Of a stretch of 64,000 nucleotides of DNA, positions 17,866 to 28,826 are shown piece by piece. Numbering within the stretch: the stretch's first letter is position 1; each line of letters starts with the position of its first letter. The stretch comes from a virus. The notes beneath the pieces are model-generated. The model saw only the letters and a program-made list of their open reading frames with translations, searched no databases and was not told the DNA's origin. The position numbers were made by a program, and so were the translations under genes. The stretch is from positions 64,001 to 128,000 of the IMG/VR virus record IMGVR_UViG_3300030419_004857. One strand, written 5' to 3'.

Positions 17866-19511
17866 CTGCCAACCCTGTTATATCTTTGTGTTTCCCATTT
17901 GTTTCTATGATTACAGAGTTGTGCAGCCATATTGTAAGCCTTCTCTTTGTCAAAAGATTCATATTGAGGCTTAACAAATTGATAAGAATCTTCATTTACA
18001 TAAGTATCTCCGGTTCCTTGTATGAACATCCCGTAATTTAAGTCTCGTATCATTCTAGCTTCCATATAACTGTTTAGTTTCTCTGGGTCGCCTAGAACAT
18101 TGATAATTAACCATTGTACGTATTCTCGGGGGCTTAGGTTTTCGGGAACCTGCGTTAAGGGCTGGTGGATTACAGGTGGGGACAGCCATGTTTCCTCTGA
18201 TGGGGGAACAATCACGCTATCAAAATAATCTTCCCACTTTTTAGCGGTGGCGTCCCATTGGTAATGTTTGTCAAAATTTGATTTGGTTTTATCTGATAAT
18301 TTCTTTCTATCTTGTTCTGATAGATTAAAAAACTCGTTCATTTTAGCGGCGGTATAATCATTGTCTGGCACAGCCCTGTTGCACCCAGTTTCCAATTCTT
18401 GGTACACAGCCTTCACTTTTAGAGGAATCCCCTCCAGTTTACGCACCACGCTGGACATAGCGGAATAATCAATGCTCATAACCGGAATAGCACAAGCCGC
18501 AGCTTCTACTTGGGGTAAACCAAACCCCTCACTGTTTGCGTATTGGATATATAAGTCGAATGTATTTGTTATCTTGGAGAGATCTTGGTAAGATACCCCT
18601 TTTTGCACGTTGGACAATCCTGCGGCATATGAATTACAACGAACGCATTTGGCTCTAGCGTCCGAAAAGAACATCGGAAAAACATGTTCGCAGTGCTGAC
18701 AAACATAAGTAAATATAACTTTGCTACTGAGTCCATACCTATTTATTAACTTTGGTATATCCCATCCCAAGTCTGGGTAACTGGTGTGGCAGTAAAGGTA
18801 AACGTCGGATCTACCAGAAACGTTTAAGAATTTTCTAAATGCCTCAAATAGATCTGGAAATAGTTTCCGTCTCTGGTTTCTCATTATTGTTCCCACAATT
18901 TGCATAGATGGATCAAAACCCATACTTATCTTGTGGTTAATTTTATTTTCCACCGGGGTATATGCGGCGTTGGCGGAAGGAGGGGCAGAACCCAGACATT
19001 TGATTACATTATTGCTTTCTCGTTTAAGTAGGTCTCGGCCCCAATCTGAATAGGCAAAAACTGCATCGGCATTAGAGAAGGTAGATAGCCACTGTTCGTT
19101 TTGTGGTTCAGCGTCTACTGTTGGCATAATTGCCCAATTGAAAAGTCTTCTAAATGGAGACCTTTCTTGGTAATCTATCATCCAAAAATCTCTGATATCA
19201 AAAACGATATCAGGAAGAAAATCTAGAAGGACATTTTCAAACTGCCATTCACCAAACTGATTTGTTGGAACAGAGTTGTATGTATCAACTTCCTGTTTGT
19301 TTGTTAAGTCTGGGAGATTACCATAAAAACCCCAAGGGATTTCTTTAGCTCTTGGGTCCGTATCGTCTCCATAACTAGCAAATTCAGCCAGATCATACTT
19401 TCCAGTATTAAAAAGCCTTCTCATTACTTCTCTACCGTAAGTTGCATATCCAGTATTAAGATATGTAGCTTCGCAACAAAGAAGAATCCTTTTTTTTCTA
19501 TTCATTGGCAT
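17862..19511 (-). CDS. Family 4 glycosyltransferase with Zn-ribbon insertion
   Basis: TGYATYG, RNQRRK..P.L, GWDIP.L, SEGFGLPQVEAAAC; inserted CQHC...CVRC. Confidence 0.85.
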   Translation of the reverse strand: MPMNRKKRILLCCEATYLNTGYATYGREVMRRLFNTGKYDLAEFASYGDDTDPRAKEIPWGFYGNLPDLTNKQEVDTYNSVPTNQFGEWQFENVLLDFLPDIVFDIRDFWMIDYQERSPFRRLFNWAIMPTVDAEPQNEQWLSTFSNADAVFAYSDWGRDLLKRESNNVIKCLGSAPPSANAAYTPVENKINHKISMGFDPSMQIVGTIMRNQRRKLFPDLFEAFRKFLNVSGRSDVYLYCHTSYPDLGWDIPKLINRYGLSSKVIFTYVCQHCEHVFPMFFSDARAKCVRCNSYAAGLSNVQKGVSYQDLSKITNTFDLYIQYANSEGFGLPQVEAAACAIPVMSIDYSAMSSVVRKLEGIPLKVKAVYQELETGCNRAVPDNDYTAAKMNEFFNLSEQDRKKLSDKTKSNFDKHYQWDATAKKWEDYFDSVIVPPSEETWLSPPVIHQPLTQVPENLSPREYVQWLIINVLGDPEKLNSYMEARMIRDLNYGMFIQGTGDTYVNEDSYQFVKPQYESFDKEKAYNMAAQLCNHRNKWETQRYNRVGR

Positions 19512-20010
19512 TTCGCAATGTTTGAATTATGCTTTGTAATTTTAAATCAACAACCCGTTTAGAACAGTGTAATTCTTCTGCGATTTCTTTGTTGGTGTGG
19601 TTTTGAAGTTTCAGTTGGAGAATAAATTTCTCGTTTGCTGTGAGATAGTCTGGGATAAATTCCATGATTTTATCTTTGTCAAAAAACTTTTGATCTCCAG
19701 CCGCAGAATCTAACAGATTGGTATCGTATATAATCTTTGGCTTTTTTCTTTTGGGGTCTTTTCTTTTGTAGTTTAGAAATGCATTTTTTATGCACAAAGT
19801 GGCAAAAGTGGAGAACTTAGATTTTGTTTCATCATATTTTCTTATGGCTTTCAATAGAGCTATTAGTCCAACCTGAATGAAATCTTCAAGGTTAGATTTA
19901 TTGTCGTCACCTAAAAAAGAAAGAGCCTGAGAAACGACTAGTCCATAATGTTCATGAACCAGTTCGTTCTCAAGCCCTTCTCCGTTTTTTATTATCACTT
20001 CATCATTCAT
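19498..20010 (-). CDS. Phage sigma-70-family factor (regions 2+4)
   Basis: EDFIQVGLIALLKAIRKYDETKSKFSTFATLCIKN; C-terminal HTH TNKEIAEEL. Confidence 0.85.
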   Translation of the reverse strand: MNDEVIIKNGEGLENELVHEHYGLVVSQALSFLGDDNKSNLEDFIQVGLIALLKAIRKYDETKSKFSTFATLCIKNAFLNYKRKDPKRKKPKIIYDTNLLDSAAGDQKFFDKDKIMEFIPDYLTANEKFILQLKLQNHTNKEIAEELHCSKRVVDLKLQSIIQTLRNANE

Positions 20011-20407
20011 CTGTTGTGTCTGACACGGCATCTAGAACAGTTTCTTTTGAATCTTCTGTCTTGGTGGTGTCACCATAATTATTATTGAATAACTTAAATT
20101 CCTTAACACGGAATCTAATTTGGAACTTCTTGTTGCCCTCTTTATCTACCCAAGAATTATTGCGCGCAGAAGCAACTAAATCAACAATGTCACCCTTCTT
20201 GCAGTATTTATTTAATGTGGTGGCTCCTGAATCCCATGCTTCAAAATCGAGATAGCTTACTGTCTTCTTTTTGTCACCATTCTTTTCTCGTCTGTATTCA
20301 CTCACTGCGAGAGTGAAAGTAAGAAGATCCGTGTTTTCTAGTTTAATAAGCTTAGGATCACCAGCAAGACGACCAATAAATCTACAGTAGTTAGAAATAG
20401 TATTCAT
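20003..20407 (-). CDS. ssb: Single-stranded DNA-binding protein
   Basis: N...IGRLAGDP, FTLAV, EAW...A....YCKKGD, W.DKEG; acidic tail. Confidence 0.9.
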   Translation of the reverse strand: MNTISNYCRFIGRLAGDPKLIKLENTDLLTFTLAVSEYRREKNGDKKKTVSYLDFEAWDSGATTLNKYCKKGDIVDLVASARNNSWVDKEGNKKFQIRFRVKEFKLFNNNYGDTTKTEDSKETVLDAVSDTTDE

Positions 20408-20467: not shown

Positions 20468-22039
20468 CTAAATTTGAAAAACATCCTCCACGACCATGCC
20501 GTCGTGATCAGATTTTCGTGATGTGGCACACGATAATATCACAGTGTTTTCACCATATAAAATCCCCTTATATTTTTGCAATTGTTCTGGGAAGATAGTA
20601 ACAGAATCTACGCTTCCCGTTTGGTCTTCGACACACAAAAACGCCATATCCTTACCCTTAGACTTACCCTTTTTAATCGTATACTTCCTGATGTCAGTTA
20701 GAGTAACGGCAAGTTTCATTTTTCCCTGTTTGCCGTCTAGAAACTCTTTGCAGGTAGTGTCTGCCATGCTAGTGTCGCATGATTCCACTTTGGAATAAGT
20801 TAGAGGTACTCCCAGATAGCCCTCCTCTGTTCTGGTTATCCATTCTGGATCGTCATCCAGAGGATACGATGGTGACTTTGTATGAAGAATTAGATCTTCA
20901 ACTATTGCGCACCTGTTTACATTGGAAGTCCCGCCACCGTTTTTCTTAGTCGGGGCTAGTGCGGTTAAAGCTTCCAAGAGACTTGAATAATTTGACTGTT
21001 TATCAGAAACCCAAGATCGTTCTAACTTTGTTAATTTTTTCCAAGTGTCAAATTCGTCTAACATTTTGGTTCGACTGTTATTGGTATTTGGAACTATGCC
21101 TAAAGAGATCATAGCAACAACAATCGAAGAATTAGCATTCATGGAGAGGTTGACTAGAAACTCGTACCAAGACCAATCTTCTACCTTTTTGTTTAGCAGC
21201 TTTTCGGCCTTTTCGGATTCTTCTTTTAGCTTTATAATTTGTTTTGAGCCTATAGATTTAATGTTTTTAAACCCAAAATGGATTTTATCACCAATAATAA
21301 CAGTGTCTTCGTTCATAGCTCCTAACGAAGGAGGCTGAATGAAAATGTCATTAACCTTCGCGTCAATTACCAGTTCCTTTACTTCCTGCTGTGGATCTTG
21401 TTTTCCGTCAGAGAAGTGCAAATACTGGGAATAGAACTCAAGTGGAAAATGTGCTTTAGCATAAGCAGACCAGTAAGCACAAATAGCATAAGAAACAGCA
21501 TGGGACTTATTAAAAGCATAACGACTTGATTTTTCAATCCAGCCGAATATCTCCTCCGCTGTTTCTTTAGGAACAATATCTTCATTTTCTGATCCTTCAA
21601 GAAACCTCTTTTTAACTTCAATCATCAAGTCAGCCTTTTTCTTGCCGATTGCCTTCCTTAGATCGTCGGCTTCTTGCAAATTGAACCCTGCAATTCTTTG
21701 GGCAATTTCCATGGACTGTTCTTGGTATACCAAAACCCCCTGCGTTTTTTCCAAAATTGGCTCTAACGCATCGTGCAGATAAGTTACCTGCTCTTTGCCA
21801 TGTTTGCGATCAACATAATGCTGCGTCATTGATTTGCCGTCAACAATTGCTTTGAGACACCCCGGACGTAGCAACGCAACCAAAGCGGCTAACTCTTCAA
21901 GATTTCTCGGTTTAAGCCTTTTTGCCCAAGATTTACCCAGACTACTCTCTAACTGAAAAACCCCCTTGGTTCTGCCCGCACAAATAAGATCCCAAGCCTG
22001 AGCATCTTCATATCCAATGTTGCTTACATCAAATTTCAT
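20468..22039 (-). CDS. dnaE: DNA polymerase III alpha, C-terminal half (fingers, HhH, OB)
   Basis: GVFQLES, ALLRPG, TQGVLVYQEQ, ADDLRKAIGKKK, YAFNKSHAVSYA, MAFL..EDQTG. Confidence 0.92.
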   Translation of the reverse strand: MKFDVSNIGYEDAQAWDLICAGRTKGVFQLESSLGKSWAKRLKPRNLEELAALVALLRPGCLKAIVDGKSMTQHYVDRKHGKEQVTYLHDALEPILEKTQGVLVYQEQSMEIAQRIAGFNLQEADDLRKAIGKKKADLMIEVKKRFLEGSENEDIVPKETAEEIFGWIEKSSRYAFNKSHAVSYAICAYWSAYAKAHFPLEFYSQYLHFSDGKQDPQQEVKELVIDAKVNDIFIQPPSLGAMNEDTVIIGDKIHFGFKNIKSIGSKQIIKLKEESEKAEKLLNKKVEDWSWYEFLVNLSMNANSSIVVAMISLGIVPNTNNSRTKMLDEFDTWKKLTKLERSWVSDKQSNYSSLLEALTALAPTKKNGGGTSNVNRCAIVEDLILHTKSPSYPLDDDPEWITRTEEGYLGVPLTYSKVESCDTSMADTTCKEFLDGKQGKMKLAVTLTDIRKYTIKKGKSKGKDMAFLCVEDQTGSVDSVTIFPEQLQKYKGILYGENTVILSCATSRKSDHDGMVVEDVFQI

Positions 22040-22048
22040 AAATTTTTC

Positions 22049-22732
22049 CTACAGATGAATTCTACCGTCTGCAAACGCTTGTTCAAATTTAATCTTTGGG
22101 GACATTTTTCGATAGAGCTTCATAAAAGCTATTAGTAGATTTGCCGTATCTTTTACATCTTGTAGGGCGTCGTGAGCATTATCCTTTGGAACGCCCAACA
22201 AATCTCTCATCGAATCCATGCTGATAGATTTAACATCGGAATTATTTTCGAACCAAAGCCACACAGTTTCCATCAAGTCAATCTTATGAATTCTATTGAA
22301 CAGAACCTGTTCCCCCCTCTTTTTATCAATAGGTCCATATTCAGAACACATTCTTTCAACTATGTGCATATCAAAGCCGTGAATATTATATCCGGCCATT
22401 ACTGGCGCGTAGTAAGGAGTTTTCTTAAAGTTGTATTTATTTACAAAATTAGTAAATTTGTTCCATACGGTTTTAGGTAAGGGGGCTTTTGCTAAAAGCT
22501 TTCTTTCCTTTTTGGTCACCGCCAACGCCTCATCTTCTATAGGGTCTAAACCTGCGGCCACCGCCTTCTCATCATCCAAGATGGGGCGAATTTCGCTATT
22601 AAAGTAGCCACCCGGCTGCACGGTCAATTTTCTTCCGTGAATCGCCACGGCGGCAACTTGTGTGGGTTGAGTTTTGTGAGGGTTTCTGCTCCCGGTTTCA
22701 AAATCGACAACAATAATATCCCGGTAATTCAT
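22049..22732 (-). CDS. DEDDh 3'-5' exonuclease (DnaQ/epsilon-like)
   Basis: VDFETG, GYN..GFD, HDALQDV. Confidence 0.88.
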   Translation of the reverse strand: MNYRDIIVVDFETGSRNPHKTQPTQVAAVAIHGRKLTVQPGGYFNSEIRPILDDEKAVAAGLDPIEDEALAVTKKERKLLAKAPLPKTVWNKFTNFVNKYNFKKTPYYAPVMAGYNIHGFDMHIVERMCSEYGPIDKKRGEQVLFNRIHKIDLMETVWLWFENNSDVKSISMDSMRDLLGVPKDNAHDALQDVKDTANLLIAFMKLYRKMSPKIKFEQAFADGRIHL

Positions 22733-22741
22733 GGCGTTCCT

Positions 22742-22957
22742 TTATTTTTTGAGTTTATATTTGATTTCTAGAAATTTACTGATGGCCCTGTCAATATTAT
22801 AATAAAATTTACTAAATTTGTATTTATGATTGTCAGAATGTACCTGATAAACATCCTCTCTTGGAACTATACGTTCTATACAACAAATGCATACATCGTC
22901 TACTTCTTCGTAATGTCCAAGCTCCAACTTGCGCCTTATTTTTTGTCTAACTGTCAT
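22742..22957 (-). CDS. Small hypothetical protein
   Basis: ATGA overlap with the dnaE-N stop; fills the gap. Confidence 0.6.
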   Translation of the reverse strand: MTVRQKIRRKLELGHYEEVDDVCICCIERIVPREDVYQVHSDNHKYKFSKFYYNIDRAISKFLEIKYKLKK

Positions 22958-24858
22958 TGGTTTGGTTCCAGTACACTTCTAATTCCCATGATTTTGTCCA
23001 ATAGAGAAACTCCTAAAATATCGAATTTAACATGACCCATTGCTTCTAAATCGTTCATTTCCATCCCCGCTATCTTTTCAGACCCCTTTTTATCTCGTAC
23101 CATGGGGCAGACTTTATCTAAACTATTAGATGAGATAACCACCCCAGCCGCATGCTTTCCTTGAGATTTAAATGTACCCTCAATTCTCATGGCCTGTTCA
23201 AACAGCTTTGAATAGTCCCCCTCCAAAGTTCCATCATCGTTTAGTCTACAATAATCTCTTAACGTGTCGGGCTGATTTGCTAAAGCCCATTCGATGACAG
23301 ACTGTCCCCCCATGTCAGCTAGCTGGTCTGAGATTTCATGTTCATGAGGTAGACTTTTAGTGATCACGTTCATCTCATCGTATGAACACGCCTGATTCAT
23401 TCTAAGCACTTCTTTTAGGGCGCTTCGACCCTGCAATCTTCCAAACGTAACCATTTGCCCGACCTTGTCTCTTCCATATTTTTCTCTGATATAGTCGATG
23501 GTTTCATCGCGCTTGGTGGCCGGTACATCTATATCAATATCGGGCAAAGAGATATGGTCTTCTGTGTTTCTTCCGGCGTTATAAAATCTTTCGAAAATTA
23601 AACCGTGTTCTATAGGATCAACCTGTGTAACGCCTATGAGATAAGAAACCAAACATCCTGCGGCAGACCCCCTCCCCGGACCCGGAAGCCAATCGTTTTC
23701 TTTTATATTTGCTACGATATCTCTAACGATTAAAAAATATCCAGATAGATTGGCATCACTGATTACCTCTAACTCTTTAGTGATTCTGTCCACATAAATA
23801 TTTTCATTCGGACCAAGTTTGCTGGTGTTGCTTAACTTTGCCTTCCAGCCCTCTCTGCACAACTGTCTGAGATAGGTTTCTTCTTCCACGTCTTCTGGAC
23901 ACTTGAACTTTGGAAGAGTCGGAGATCCTAAGATGTCATATTCTTCACACATGTCTGCTATTTGCATTGAATTCTTTAGTTCAGATTCTGTATGCAACTT
24001 AGACATTTCTTCATATGTCGGGATATGAAAATTGTTCGACTTTAAAAATCCAGAAAATCCCACATCTTCATTGTTGTCCAACTTTCTCTTAATGTCTCTA
24101 AGAGGAGTTTTCATAGCAGAGCATAACAACAATAGGTGGTCGCTAGCATCTTCTTTGGTGGGATAGTGTGAATCTGCCGTTGCGACAGACGGGATAGAAT
24201 ACTTTTTAGAGACGTATCTTAACCCCTGAGCGACCAACTTTGCTGCCGGGGAAACTTCTTCGTCTATACATTGAATTTCGATAAGAAAATTCTCTTTGCC
24301 AAAAATGTCTTTATACAAATTTGCCTGACTAAGAACTTTTGACTCCCAATCTGGATTAATGTACCTTTTAACTTCTTCTTCTGTTGAGGCTTTGTATGCA
24401 GATTTAGGGTCTTCGAAAATACAATTCGCTAACTCACTACCAAGATGACCGCTAAATGCAATTAAGTCTCCGTTCGCGTGCTCTTTTAAAATATCAAGAT
24501 CTAATCTAGGTTTAAAATAAAACAAATCCTCATCGTTACTTCGAGAAGTAATCTCGATTAGATTTTTCCAGCCATTAATGTTTTTTGCCAATACCACCAG
24601 ATGGCTTAGAGATCTATTTGAAACATCTTTAACTGTTGCTGGCTGATCGCTGATATATAGCTCGCATCCCAATATAGGCTTTATGTTCTTGTCCTTCATT
24701 GCTTTTGTAAAGGCTACTGCTCCAGCTATCGTTCCATGATCTGTAACAGCACAAGAATTATATCCTAGCTCAGAACATCTTGAAGCGACTTGTTCGGGCT
24801 TTGAGAGTCCATCCAACAGGCTGTAGTGAGTATGCAAATGTAGAGGTGTCCAATTCAT
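22954..24858 (-). CDS. dnaE: DNA polymerase III alpha, N-terminal half (PHP, palm, thumb)
   Basis: HLHTHYSLLDG, TDHG, DSHY, GPGRGSAAG, FERF, PDIDID, HAAGVVI, KFDILG. Confidence 0.93.
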   Translation of the reverse strand: MNWTPLHLHTHYSLLDGLSKPEQVASRCSELGYNSCAVTDHGTIAGAVAFTKAMKDKNIKPILGCELYISDQPATVKDVSNRSLSHLVVLAKNINGWKNLIEITSRSNDEDLFYFKPRLDLDILKEHANGDLIAFSGHLGSELANCIFEDPKSAYKASTEEEVKRYINPDWESKVLSQANLYKDIFGKENFLIEIQCIDEEVSPAAKLVAQGLRYVSKKYSIPSVATADSHYPTKEDASDHLLLLCSAMKTPLRDIKRKLDNNEDVGFSGFLKSNNFHIPTYEEMSKLHTESELKNSMQIADMCEEYDILGSPTLPKFKCPEDVEEETYLRQLCREGWKAKLSNTSKLGPNENIYVDRITKELEVISDANLSGYFLIVRDIVANIKENDWLPGPGRGSAAGCLVSYLIGVTQVDPIEHGLIFERFYNAGRNTEDHISLPDIDIDVPATKRDETIDYIREKYGRDKVGQMVTFGRLQGRSALKEVLRMNQACSYDEMNVITKSLPHEHEISDQLADMGGQSVIEWALANQPDTLRDYCRLNDDGTLEGDYSKLFEQAMRIEGTFKSQGKHAAGVVISSNSLDKVCPMVRDKKGSEKIAGMEMNDLEAMGHVKFDILGVSLLDKIMGIRSVLEPNQ

Positions 24859-24862
24859 TATT

Positions 24863-25567
24863 CTATATTCCGTCTATTCGATTTCTGTGTTTAGCAATCT
24901 CGTATTGCATAAGAATTCCACCGCGCATGCCATCACTATCCTCTACGAAACTATGTGTTGACCTCTGAATTGCTAGACTGGGCACACAGATATAGAAATT
25001 ATATTGTCTAGCCATCTTCGTTCCTAAAATCCAATCTATGGGACCGATTGGATCGTATGTTACGAGCTTCTCAATTATATTACGTTTGAGAATACATGCA
25101 TGAAAACCCGCATGTCTCTGTGATTGCTCGATCTTGAACTTTTCATACATCTCATAATGCGGCGGGTTTCCACCGTGATACGAACCCAGCCACAAACCGT
25201 CCCATTCTTTGTATTCTATTTGTTGAAGATTTTCTACAAAATCATTGGTGAAGTAAGCGTCGTCTTCTAGAAAGAGCGCATTACTCACCCCTTCTTCCAG
25301 AACAATGTTCATCATTTCTTTATGACATTTCCATGCGTTGTACGCATTGGGACGGTTTACCCATGAATTATGACCAGATGTTAACGGTTTCTCGTTATTA
25401 TCCACCTTGTCATAGACGTGTCCATCTAATGATTGCCCATCGCCAGCGATAAACTTGTGCATGGGTCTACCGAATATGCTCTTTACCTGTTCGTCCAATT
25501 CGGACCAGAGCTTCACCCTCTTATCTAAACACAAACAAATAATCTTATCTATATCTGATATGTTCAT
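24863..25567 (-). CDS. Family 25-like glycosyltransferase
   Basis: ICLCLDKR, AW..H, LFLEDDA, WD.LWLG, PIDW; ATGA overlap supports a start at 25567. Confidence 0.8.
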   Translation of the reverse strand: MNISDIDKIICLCLDKRVKLWSELDEQVKSIFGRPMHKFIAGDGQSLDGHVYDKVDNNEKPLTSGHNSWVNRPNAYNAWKCHKEMMNIVLEEGVSNALFLEDDAYFTNDFVENLQQIEYKEWDGLWLGSYHGGNPPHYEMYEKFKIEQSQRHAGFHACILKRNIIEKLVTYDPIGPIDWILGTKMARQYNFYICVPSLAIQRSTHSFVEDSDGMRGGILMQYEIAKHRNRIDGI

Positions 25568-26241
25568 CTTATGTAGATCCCATCTCCCCAAGAATGATGC
25601 GCCATGTAAGTGTCTACTCTGTCAAATCCGTATCCCGATAAAAATTCGTCAATCTCGCTCGCTTTAGCTCCTCCTACATAAAGCTCCTCAAAGGCCAACT
25701 CTGTGTAGATAACTTTACAAGAACCTGACTCTAGATATTTTTTCATGCCTTCCAGAGCCTTCATTTCTGCACCCTGCAAATCCATATTCAGGAATTCAAA
25801 GTCTTTTGGATTGAATTCATGCCTCTTGAAGAGGGTGTCCAGTGTAATTGTGTTAACTTTAACCTGAGAAACTTCATCAATATGAGGGTAATATTCTTTG
25901 TGTTTTCCCAAAGAAAGAAGTGATGAACAGCCGCAGTTACCCTGTTCAGGAAAATTATGATAATTTTGACGATCATCAGGATAAATAATTTTAAAATCGA
26001 CCGTGCTATCATCTACATCCGAAATAGCATAATCAAATACATTCTGAAAATTCTCGTCAAAATCATATAAATTTTTACGAATGATAGGTAGCAAGTCTGG
26101 ATTTGCCTCAACCCAAATTACACGATCTATTTCGCAAGCTCTGTACTCATACCTTTCTTCTGCCTTACAGGCTCCTAAATGAATAGCCCCTTTAATGTTT
26201 AGGTTGTAACGACTAATTATGCTTGCTAATGATTCTATCAT
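25564..26241 (-). CDS. FkbM-family methyltransferase
   Basis: HLGAC..EE, VEANP, SSLL, TLD, LNMDLQGAE..AL.G, LY.G, WGDG.Y. Confidence 0.88.
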   Translation of the reverse strand: MIESLASIISRYNLNIKGAIHLGACKAEERYEYRACEIDRVIWVEANPDLLPIIRKNLYDFDENFQNVFDYAISDVDDSTVDFKIIYPDDRQNYHNFPEQGNCGCSSLLSLGKHKEYYPHIDEVSQVKVNTITLDTLFKRHEFNPKDFEFLNMDLQGAEMKALEGMKKYLESGSCKVIYTELAFEELYVGGAKASEIDEFLSGYGFDRVDTYMAHHSWGDGIYIR

Positions 26242-26242
26242 T

Positions 26243-27247
26243 TTACTGTGCCGCCCTTCCACCACCAGCCCCGTATGATCCTATTTTGTCAACATTGCCA
26301 TATTCAAGAACCACTTTGTTTACCCCCTTTTTTCTCACTTCGTCTCTAATATGTTGACACATGCTTTTTTTAGCACCGGATTTGTACGGGGCGCTGAATT
26401 TGCATAATTTTTGACATTTCCAGTGGGTGTTTTCATTTGAAAGGAGTTTAGGATGACTCACATCACGGATATATTTGAACTTTCGTTTTAATATATTCTC
26501 TGCTTTTTTGTAATCAGTGTCATCAAAACACATCGAAAACAATCCGCCATCATTTATGTAAAATATACTTACTGAAAAATCGTAGTCTGGGTACAGATTT
26601 TTTAGGGCGTAGTAGTATAAAAGAAGCTGGGTGTCTTTTTGTAGACTCTCAAGGGTTTTCTCCTCCCCCGTGGCCCAGTTCAGCCTTCTGCCAGTTTTGT
26701 AGTCGATCAACTCGTAGTAATTCTCTTCGTGTTTCACGATTAAGTCAACAGTCCCTTTGATCGCCAAGTTTCCTTTTATGATTTTTCCGCCGATATCGTA
26801 AGAAAATTTGGCCCAAGGCTTATCAATTTCTATATCAAAAAACTTCTCGGTTGCAAACACGTTTTGATTTCTAGGATCTAGGAGTCCATTATTATAACTA
26901 ATGGCCTTTTCCACCCAGCCTGTACATTTCTTAAGTTCAGCCTTACTCAGATCCACATCTGGTTCTAAGTCGGTGTAATAATCAAACGCTTTTTCCGTAA
27001 CTTTTGGAATATTGTCACATTCCTTGAGCGAAAATCTTCCTAACTCGCCATCCCCAAAGCTCTTATTTCCTCTCTGCATGCAAAGCTTTTTATCAGCCAA
27101 TACCTGCAAAGCTTTATGGACGATGGTTCCCATAAGAGCTTTTTTATTTGTTTTATCCTTAAAAGCCAAATTATACTGTAGGAAGTATTTCTGCTCACAG
27201 AAATCCAAAGTACCCAAGCTACTACTTCTGTGATAACAAACTATCAT
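26243..27247 (-). CDS. Cas4/AddB-like PD-(D/E)XK exonuclease with probable Fe-S staple
   Basis: S.S....FCEQKY, GTIVH..L, E, GTVD, IDYKTG, QLLLY, C-terminal C..LC...C. Confidence 0.8.
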   Translation of the reverse strand: MIVCYHRSSSLGTLDFCEQKYFLQYNLAFKDKTNKKALMGTIVHKALQVLADKKLCMQRGNKSFGDGELGRFSLKECDNIPKVTEKAFDYYTDLEPDVDLSKAELKKCTGWVEKAISYNNGLLDPRNQNVFATEKFFDIEIDKPWAKFSYDIGGKIIKGNLAIKGTVDLIVKHEENYYELIDYKTGRRLNWATGEEKTLESLQKDTQLLLYYYALKNLYPDYDFSVSIFYINDGGLFSMCFDDTDYKKAENILKRKFKYIRDVSHPKLLSNENTHWKCQKLCKFSAPYKSGAKKSMCQHIRDEVRKKGVNKVVLEYGNVDKIGSYGAGGGRAAQ

Positions 27248-27734
27248 TTAATTCATTTAACTCACTTATTTTAAGGTTGAAACAGTCCGCTTTTACTACA
27301 AAATTATTTGATGGATCTACGTCCCCTTTATTAAGAAAGGTTGCTTTGGAGAAATATTCATCTCTACCCATGACTCCTAAGATCCAAGCAGTTTTCCATT
27401 CATTGGGTTTACTTTTGTGCCATTCTATACGCACAAAAATGTAAGCATCGCATCTTTGGTGGTCGCTAGTTTTGGCTATTGAACACTCATAGAACGGCTT
27501 TGGTGGAGATGTGCAGCGTTTTGTTTTCACGTCGATCTTAAGGTCGCCCTTTATTATATCATAGTCGTATTTATCTACAATTTGCCCATTAATTAAATTG
27601 TTAACAACTTCTTCCCCCAGAAACCCCGCGATGTTTCCACGACCTCTAGTGATAGAATTATTAATTACACCCATAGATTTTGAGCGTTCTTTAGCCTTCT
27701 TAAGCATCTCCTTGGTAATTTCAACTTCAAACAT
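27222..27734 (-). CDS. Restriction-endonuclease-like (PD-(D/E)XK) protein
   Basis: G.LGE, DYD....KIDVKT, DAYIF. Confidence 0.55.
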   Translation of the reverse strand: MFEVEITKEMLKKAKERSKSMGVINNSITRGRGNIAGFLGEEVVNNLINGQIVDKYDYDIIKGDLKIDVKTKRCTSPPKPFYECSIAKTSDHQRCDAYIFVRIEWHKSKPNEWKTAWILGVMGRDEYFSKATFLNKGDVDPSNNFVVKADCFNLKISELNELNDSLLSQK

Positions 27735-28089
27735 TTAATTCTCTCCCGTATTCATCTTCCAATCTTACAATATCTTCTTCGGAACATTTTCCAAACTGCA
27801 TCTCGTAAGCAACAATGTCATCGTTTCCATTATTTATCAGTTGATGAGATTCATTCGTCTTTATATGAAAATATGATCCGGGTCCAACCTTCCATACAGA
27901 GGCATTAAGTCTCATTGCACCCCTCCCAGACACCACATACCAAAATTCCTCTCGTTTGTGGTGAAGCTGGTATGATATTGACTGTCCGGGTTGCACAACA
28001 ATTTTTTTAAAAACAACTTGGTCGTTTCTAAAATAATCCTTATAATATCCCCAAGGCTTACCTACTTGGTCACTTTTGCTTTCAGCCAT
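27727..28089 (-). CDS. Type II mannose-6-phosphate isomerase cupin domain
   Basis: KPWGYY, V.PGQSISYQLHHKREEFW.VVSG, H.L.N, E.QFG...EEDIVRLEDEYGR. Confidence 0.88.
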   Translation of the reverse strand: MAESKSDQVGKPWGYYKDYFRNDQVVFKKIVVQPGQSISYQLHHKREEFWYVVSGRGAMRLNASVWKVGPGSYFHIKTNESHQLINNGNDDIVAYEMQFGKCSEEDIVRLEDEYGRELNV

Positions 28090-28826
28090 CCCCACTCCTT
28101 TAGCGTGTTTAACAAGAGTTTATTAGATTCATCTATACTCATTGAAGAATTATCTATCACACAGTCGAAACCATCATATTCGTTAAGAGCAATTTCGCTA
28201 GCATGTTCATCTTCAAAGGGGTTTCTAGTTAGTCTGATGACTTTTCCACCCGCCTTTTGTAAAGCTTCTACTTCGTTTGGAAATCTACAATCAGCAACAA
28301 TCGCTAACTCTGTACCACTTTTATGAATTCTATCAATACAAGCCGCCGTCCAAATATCTGGTTTAATGGTCCTACAAATATCTGTTCCAAATACTTGCAT
28401 AAATTCTCTGGCTGTTAAATAACCTTCCTTATTCTTAACGCCCGGAATATGCTCCCACTTTATGTTAACAGGGGTGTTTTTGTCATCGTCGGACCCGTGA
28501 CACTGTTCGTAATTTAGGCCAAAAAGACCGATGCATAGCGCTTTTAGTGGGTCTGCAAAACTAAAGGCTTTCACGAATGGCCAGATATTTTGACTAGCAT
28601 ACATGCTAAACTCGTAATCGGTTCTGAACACGTCAATAATTCCAACACCCTCCACCTCCTCCCCTTTCTCGTCCAAGGATGTGGTGTTTACAAGAATTTC
28701 CCCCCGGTCATTCATAAAAAATTTATCAATTATATCATGAAATTTCATTTGATATCCATGAAGAAAATTGGCGCATGTGGTTTTTCCACTTTGCTTAGAT
28801 CCTGATATTCCCAAAATGTGCTGCAT
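28062..28826 (-). CDS. Deoxynucleoside monophosphate kinase (T4 gp1-like)
   Basis: GISGSKQSGKTT, SFADPLK, REFMQVFGTD, DCRFPNE, HASE. Confidence 0.88.
   Translation of the reverse strand: MQHILGISGSKQSGKTTCANFLHGYQMKFHDIIDKFFMNDRGEILVNTTSLDEKGEEVEGVGIIDVFRTDYEFSMYASQNIWPFVKAFSFADPLKALCIGLFGLNYEQCHGSDDDKNTPVNIKWEHIPGVKNKEGYLTAREFMQVFGTDICRTIKPDIWTAACIDRIHKSGTELAIVADCRFPNEVEALQKAGGKVIRLTRNPFEDEHASEIALNEYDGFDCVIDNSSMSIDESNKLLLNTLKEWGWLKAKVTK

Follow-up and report, generated by a model that had tools for sequence, protein, structure and literature searches.

The α subunit of DNA polymerase III (Pol III), DnaE, is the textbook single-chain bacterial replicase, and to our knowledge the only well-known natural splits of this protein are those rejoined by inteins. 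Here we describe a dnaE of an uncultured marine phage that is broken in two, found in a 64,000-nucleotide stretch of virus DNA (IMG/VR record IMGVR_UViG_3300030419_004857, positions 64,001 to 128,000; this whole stretch is called the window, and positions are counted from its first letter). The two genes, dnaE-N and dnaE-C, divide the polymerase at the palm/fingers boundary, and between them lie the gene for a DEDDh 3'-5' exonuclease and an open reading frame (ORF) of 71 amino acids. From the comparisons below, we put a probability of roughly 0.8 on these genes encoding a replicative C-family polymerase that is made as two chains, never joined covalently, and that assembles non-covalently.

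Cyanobacterial DnaE and the 'fractured' dnaE genes of metagenomes are also encoded by two genes, and split inteins rejoin their products; the two parts of a fractured gene lie next to each other with a homing endonuclease gene in between (Dassa et al. 2009, PMC2677866). The window shares the two-gene state and, with the fractured genes, the adjacent halves with another gene between. However, it has no intein, and its break precedes the cyanobacterial site (FNKSH) by about 175 residues, as seen from the cyanobacterial DnaE-C model PRK07373, which aligns from residue 175 of dnaE-C. The gap holds the DEDDh exonuclease gene and the 71-amino-acid ORF rather than a homing endonuclease gene, whereas ORFs of the Endonuclease_7 and HNH_3 types appear only in some relatives, at the junction between the exonuclease gene and dnaE-C.

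Closer parallels come from phage enzymes that are split and contain no intein. The gp43A and gp43B proteins of Aeromonas phage 25 co-purify and polymerise (Petrov, Ratnayaka & Karam 2010, reviewed in PMC2988022), and Aeromonas phage 44RR also has the split gp43. The split NrdA of phage Aeh1 is likewise active (PMC3045599). In each case, as in the window, an essential phage replication enzyme is encoded by two adjacent genes with no splicing element. Mobile endonuclease genes accompany such junctions, and in the known cases the products assemble non-covalently. The gp43 pair belongs to polymerase family B, whereas the window's belongs to family C, and is broken between palm and fingers with an exonuclease gene in the gap. 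Group 2.2 jumbo phages encode a minimal split Pol III α, a nucleotidyltransferase core and a template-binding part at distant loci, alongside a family-B replicase. Other domains of Pol III α are missing from this version, and a single enzyme is predicted to form from its two stand-alone proteins (Iyer et al. 2021, PMC7824862). In contrast, the window's halves are adjacent and probably keep the whole set of domains, and no PolB is in the genome. Our literature search turned up no description of an arrangement in which an exonuclease gene separates the two halves; the split systems it did return were split-intein DnaE, fractured genes, split gp43 and the minimal split Pol III. What is new here is an intein-free split phage polymerase of family C with a proofreader-type gene in the break.

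The four genes lie on the minus strand and are transcribed in the order dnaE-N (22954..24858; 634 amino acids), the 71-amino-acid ORF (22742..22957), the exonuclease gene (22049..22732; 227 amino acids) and dnaE-C (20468..22039; 523 amino acids). Next in the same co-oriented run is ssb (20003..20407, minus strand), followed by a sigma factor gene (19498..20031). The two central genes occupy the 914-nucleotide gap between dnaE-N and dnaE-C. The small ORF begins on the dnaE-N stop codon (ATGA), and spacers of 9 nucleotides precede the exonuclease gene and dnaE-C, each with its own AGGA Shine-Dalgarno site. One site (22738..22741, minus strand) is 5 nucleotides before the exonuclease ATG; the other (22047..22050, minus strand) overlaps the exonuclease stop codon and is 7 nucleotides before the dnaE-C ATG. 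Promoter- and terminator-like sites in the region did not exceed the shuffled expectation. With the overlapping stop and start codons and the two short spacers bearing ribosome-binding sites, the four genes form one co-oriented, tightly spaced unit, and we therefore expect the chains to be made together.

We compared both halves with complete DnaE proteins. In Pfam, dnaE-N matches PHP (PF02811, residues 6-196, 3.6e-39) and DNA_pol3_alpha (PF07733, residues 329-616, 6.5e-70), and dnaE-C matches DNA_pol3_finger (PF17657, residues 2-152, 7e-48). The HHH_6 match in dnaE-C is below the cut-off (16.9 bits), and an OB match is weak and appears in one relative only. Aligned to Taq DnaE, residues 3-626 of dnaE-N correspond to 7-631 and residues 3-278 of dnaE-C to 643-912. 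On E. coli α, the N half ends at 563 and the C half begins at 584. The same pattern holds for the NCBIfam DnaE model PRK05673 (positions 4-567 and 581-1060 of 1146), for PHROG 405, a full-length phage DnaE profile (42-609 and 624-1054), and for an unsplit phage orthologue of 1141 amino acids (residues 6-626 and 633-1135). The halves are therefore complementary: they lie end to end on a full DnaE with no overlap and no loss. The break falls in the first loop past the last helix of the palm, at approximately E. coli residues 564-583. Compared with single-chain DnaE (Taq 2HPI and 4IQJ; E. coli 2HNH and 5FKU), the window has the same catalytic and dNTP-binding motifs and probably the same domain set, in the same order, but its chain is broken after the palm, with two genes in the break.

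An earlier note on this DNA had listed the four ORFs with their sizes and order, followed by ssb and sigma, and described the gap as filled by ORFs; all were found where it had placed them, exact to the base. It had also said that dnaE-N stops just past the last catalytic motif and that dnaE-C starts just before GVFQLES. Both descriptions are accurate: dnaE-N ends 21 residues past the third catalytic aspartate (in KFDILG), and GVFQLES occupies residues 26-32 of dnaE-C. The alignment to E. coli and Taq DnaE that it proposed gave the complete, non-overlapping coverage described above.

The position of the break divides the active site between the two chains. PDIDID, KFDILG and GRGSAAG (the last at residue 395) are all carried by dnaE-N, in which D440, D442 and D613 align with the catalytic triad of the Taq and E. 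coli enzymes. This polymerase triad is invariant across 80 N halves of relatives, and GRGSAAG is likewise invariant among relatives. The deoxynucleoside triphosphate (dNTP)-binding motifs of the fingers (VFQLES, RPG, YQEQ, LRKAIGKK and FNKSH) reside in dnaE-C and are invariant in the C halves of relatives. Thus the fingers motifs that mark the DnaE family are present, but on a second chain and not within one continuous polypeptide. With the catalytic aspartates on one protein and the dNTP-binding fingers on the other, an active site exists only if both chains meet.

No means of rejoining the halves was apparent. A Pfam scan of both (E≤0.01) found no intein, Hint or homing-endonuclease family. 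The intein model of the same library marks inteins in unsplit relatives, so the scan is able to see inteins in the DnaE family. Only about 8 residues at the tail of the N half and 2 at the head of the C half lie outside the homology, which leaves no room for a split intein, even a mini one. The first residues of dnaE-C, MKFDV, offer no Cys, Ser or Thr nucleophile at the junction. An Rfam scan of 19.5-25.5 kb (E≤1) returned no match. In relatives, the gap reaches several kilobases of unrelated genes, so that neither splicing nor ribosome hopping can be the general mechanism. The earlier note had read the locus as a dnaE split at the palm/fingers boundary with no intein or intron and had suggested an intein profile search; that search came back empty, the coding gap leaves no room for an intron, and every computational test agrees with its reading.

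To see how widely this layout occurs, we drew 95 loci from at least 465 relatives found in two IMG/VR scans. In 91 of them, dnaE-N, an optional small ORF, the exonuclease gene and dnaE-C follow one another on one strand; in the other four, the exonuclease gene and dnaE-C were seen and dnaE-N was not found within the fetched flank. The order recurs in independent metagenomic loci down to 41% identity, which answers the synteny check proposed in the earlier note, and its presence in 91 of 95 such loci argues that it is neither chance nor misassembly. In the protein database, more than 120 clusters of N halves of about 635 amino acids contain the PHP and catalytic domains but lack the fingers. 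Marine data sets, Tara Oceans among them, supply many of these clusters, and their contigs reach 164 kb. Among deposited phages, a megablast search with the region gave no match. A tblastn search with the exonuclease returned only seven Bacteroidota-phage records, and the two whose flanks were inspected had no DnaE beside the exonuclease. No cultured or deposited phage among the records examined has the split layout, in searches from which records closest to the window may have been masked.

The exonuclease gene is the sole constant occupant of the gap, present in all 95 loci. In a clade without the small ORF, it directly adjoins dnaE-N in 20 loci. In most of these, dnaE-N and the exonuclease gene overlap, stop codon on start codon, and the exonuclease gene often overlaps dnaE-C in the same way. 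The total gap is 651-724 nucleotides in 16 loci, room for the exonuclease alone. Elsewhere, the junction between dnaE-N and the exonuclease gene carries the small ORF, a uracil-DNA glycosylase gene, FkbM/TylF methyltransferase genes, a UDP-glucose dehydrogenase gene or three putative sugar genes.

Several relatives carry further genes at these junctions. In L030 and L036 (1-4250), four unannotated genes (266-402 amino acids) precede the exonuclease gene, and dnaE-N is more than 4 kb away. L086 (1802-4003) has ORFs of 320, 142 and 273 amino acids at the same junction, which may be sugar-nucleotide enzymes from their appearance, and L101 has a uracil-DNA glycosylase gene with ORFs of no known function there. 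The other junction, from the exonuclease gene to dnaE-C, carries a free-standing ORF (118-158 amino acids) in L042, L043, L045, L048, L050, L053, L055-L057, L059, L060, L063, L088 and L089. Two of these ORFs were scanned: that of L042 is of the Endonuclease_7 type and that of L089 of the HNH_3 type, which suggests that homing-type endonucleases target this junction. The C halves themselves also vary. Sixteen of 94 begin with a head of 20-30 residues of the form x-C-G-C-x-F ... C-x-x-T-W (L006-L008, L010-L012, L014, L015, L030-L032, L035, L036, L040, L078 and L098). This Cys-rich head is found neither in the window's C half nor in the junction stretch of 20 aligned unsplit relatives. By analogy with the tails of the Aeh1 split NrdA, it could be an assembly tail or a Cys knuckle.

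Two parts of the locus are candidates for proofreading by the split polymerase. The PHP domain of the window retains all nine metal ligands. So do 36 of the 80 N halves scored, the window's included. In the other 44 (for example, those of L042, L044, L068 and L086), most or all nine ligands are replaced, and the N half is only 495-552 amino acids long, approximately 90-110 shorter. This leaves those lineages with the DEDDh enzyme as their sole candidate proofreader; the window has two, the PHP site and the DEDDh enzyme.

The exonuclease has the catalytic residues D10, E12, D121, H187 and D192 and matches the RNase_T/DEDDh family in Pfam (1e-11). Its D-E-D-H-D set is invariant in the exonucleases of all 90 relatives compared. 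The predicted fold is DnaQ-like, and Foldseek matches it to RNase T, ExoI and DnaQ domains with a probability of 1.00. Its nearest neighbours are RNase T and ExoI, together with the DinG/DnaQ exonuclease domains. The best sequence match in the PDB is a PolC-type exonuclease fragment (7e-9). No ε (DnaQ) model is among its NCBIfam matches, and the generic 3'-5' exonuclease models that it does match score far under their cut-offs (31 bits vs 189). Its sequence and predicted fold thus mark it as a divergent DnaQ-like DEDDh enzyme outside the ε equivalog. The earlier note had called it ε-like, which holds for the DEDDh motifs and the DnaQ-like fold but not for membership of the ε family by sequence. 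It is the sole RNase_T-type gene in the window's genome.

At the C terminus of the exonuclease, the last ~14 residues, a low-confidence stretch of the model, are predicted to be unstructured, yet they contain a conserved peptide, KFEKAFA(D/N)G (in another form KFEqAFADG), which looks like a docking motif. We considered KFEKAF as a β-clamp-binding motif and rejected it because Lys or Gln takes the place of the key hydrophobic residue at position 4. In coupling a DEDDh exonuclease genetically to a C-family polymerase, the locus resembles both PolC and Pol III ε (DnaQ) with its partners. In PolC, however, the exonuclease is an inserted domain and here it is a separate chain, and the C-terminal peptide is unrelated to that of ε.

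The 71-amino-acid protein, encoded beside the exonuclease, is the size of a small partner, as are θ and HOT with ε. θ is all-helical, whereas the AlphaFold2 model of the window's protein is α-β4-α, with a predicted local distance difference test score of 93.8. The protein matches nothing in Pfam, PHROGs or NCBIfam, and Foldseek found no match to its model in the PDB (E≤0.001). VIA-align gave only middling scores: Z 6.6 for YkuJ (2ffg), 5.5 for an AP2 DNA-binding domain (6sy0) and about 4 for integrase arm-binding domains. Scores of this size do not tell kinship apart from a shared α/β arrangement, and we therefore did not adopt any of these candidates. A profile of the small ORF collects 206 clusters, nearly all of them free-standing proteins of 66-100 amino acids, and the ORF encodes a real protein. 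Among 28 loci whose PHP site is intact, 22 have the ORF, as do all 14 loci of one PHP-dead clade, but none of the 28 loci of another. Because it is absent throughout that clade, it cannot be an obligatory polymerase subunit. Its gene keeps company with the exonuclease gene but is dispensable in a large clade, and the protein is an accessory at most.

A search limited to longer proteins uncovered unsplit relatives: single-chain DnaEs of 1124-1154 amino acids, on phage-sized contigs, that are 43-53% identical to the N half (P0281-P0328 in our comparison). Two loci, L104 and L106, share the window's order of DnaB, primase, deoxynucleoside monophosphate (dNMP) kinase and PD-(D/E)XK nuclease, and later ssb, sigma and glycosyltransferases. 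Their dnaE is intact (6001-10185 in L106). Just upstream of it are a small-ORF homologue of 78-79 amino acids and an exonuclease 52-60% identical to the window's, with an FkbM methyltransferase gene between this pair and dnaE. The pair is therefore independent of the break, and the two layouts differ in its position relative to the first 1.9 kb of dnaE. The DnaE of L106 contains an intein between RPG and the following Cys; this site is distinct from the break point and lies approximately 60 residues further downstream.

To place the split in the history of the family, we built maximum-likelihood trees of the N and C regions, rooted with bacterial DnaE. An unsplit clade of 14 members is nested among split lineages, with Shimodaira-Hasegawa-like approximate likelihood ratio test support of at least 98, and a second unsplit clade lies near the base. 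The approximately unbiased test rejects a single split clade (ΔlnL 109, p = 1.9e-9) for groups that were set by architecture but named after the first tree was seen. Because split and unsplit forms are interleaved on the DnaE trees, the state must have changed at least twice. On the tree of the short exonuclease, those from unsplit contexts fall outside a split-context clade with 95% support. The candidate histories are a single split with a single re-fusion, repeated and independent splitting at one site, or recombination.

The window lies in a virus record of 161,265 bp rated 100% complete, in which no PolA, PolB or second DnaE was detected. Around the split gene are genes for ribonucleotide reductase (RNR), PhoH, a RecA-like protein, DnaB, primase, dNMP kinase and a PD-(D/E)XK nuclease. 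The split DnaE is the only DNA polymerase detected and most likely the phage's replicase. Upstream of dnaE-N, on the minus strand at 24863-28095, sugar-related genes are mixed among the replication genes. They include a weak GT25-like ORF just upstream of dnaE-N (24863-25591), an FkbM-type methyltransferase that serves as a synteny marker (25564..26265) and a mannose-6-phosphate-isomerase-type cupin (27727-28095), all on the minus strand; the PD-(D/E)XK nuclease (26243-27247, minus strand) is flanked by sugar-related genes.

Given these results, we propose that dnaE-N and dnaE-C come together at the extensive contact surface between palm and fingers in the DnaE fold and so rebuild one active site. 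The first chain would contribute the PHP domain, the palm with its three catalytic aspartates and the thumb; the second would contribute the dNTP-binding fingers, the HhH/β-binding region and a C-terminal OB-like domain. The DEDDh exonuclease is most likely, judging from its motifs and constant position, the proofreading partner, and may dock through its conserved, disordered C-terminal peptide. Four observations weigh against this proposal. No phage clamp or clamp loader was found in the 161,265-bp record. The Aeh1 split NrdA has interaction tails, whereas the window's halves show no obvious added ones. The exonuclease is no closer to ε than to RNase T or ExoI. Finally, with all nine ligands in place, the window's PHP domain could itself proofread, leaving the DEDDh enzyme another role.

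The strongest alternative concerns the exonuclease, which could be a passenger of the rearrangement that broke dnaE and work in repair, recombination or degradation of host DNA. Such a history would fit unsplit sisters that keep the small-ORF and exonuclease pair outside dnaE, upstream of it, as well as gap junctions that both readily take unrelated cargo and an exonuclease whose nearest folds (RNase T, ExoI and the DinG exonuclease domain) are not specifically those of ε. However, a passenger would not be expected to be the one invariant gap occupant in 95/95 loci, to stay near dnaE even in unsplit genomes and to keep its DEDDh residues without exception. In addition, the PHP site is dead in many relatives, no other proofreader was found in the window's own genome, where this was checked, and the conserved peptide in the low-confidence tail has the look of a docking motif. 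We regard the passenger history as possible but doubtful. Rather unlikely, in our view, is a proposal in the opposite direction: that the exonuclease is an integral third chain of a three-piece core, produced in the order of the genes (N, exonuclease, C), that docks by its conserved C-terminal peptide and has taken over proofreading from PHP, and that the break is reversible, at least one lineage (the unsplit clade nested among split ones) having re-fused its dnaE and expelled the pair to a site just upstream.

A different possibility is that the halves act separately, dnaE-N as a PHP nuclease/pyrophosphatase or crippled polymerase and dnaE-C as a DNA- or clamp-binding factor, while the host Pol III copies the phage DNA. 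The missing clamp and clamp loader do imply some dependence on host replication factors. Nevertheless, the aspartate triad and the finger motifs are both invariant in divergent relatives, which is sensible only if they meet in one active site, and the phage encodes its own DnaB, primase, SSB and RNR. The same genomic slot holds unsplit orthologues, and the PHP ligands are dispensable in many relatives, contrary to a PHP-centred role for the N half. We therefore consider separate action improbable. Finally, split inteins rejoin cyanobacterial and fractured dnaE (PMC2677866) and inteins occur in unsplit relatives of the same clade, but rejoining of the window's halves into a single mature chain by unrecognised protein splicing, RNA splicing or translational bypass is highly improbable, considering that the halves have no intein or Hint match, no room at their termini and no nucleophile, that Rfam is empty and the 914-nucleotide gap consists of two conserved protein genes, that the gap of relatives grows to several kilobases with unrelated cargo, and that the L106 intein is not at the break.

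If the polymerase is indeed made as two non-covalently assembled chains, the locus would give biochemists and engineers a compact polymerase/proofreader system whose parts can be separated. It would also provide naturally matched orthologues, split and unsplit, within one gene context, in which the fracture of an essential gene, and perhaps its re-fusion, could be studied. A switch of proofreading from PHP to ε is known from bacteria, and the loss of the PHP metal site together with strict retention of the DEDDh residues mirrors that switch inside one phage family. More generally, it would mean that separate polypeptides can build a C-family active site and that a large, abundant group of aquatic phages runs Pol III α as two chains, cut between palm and fingers.

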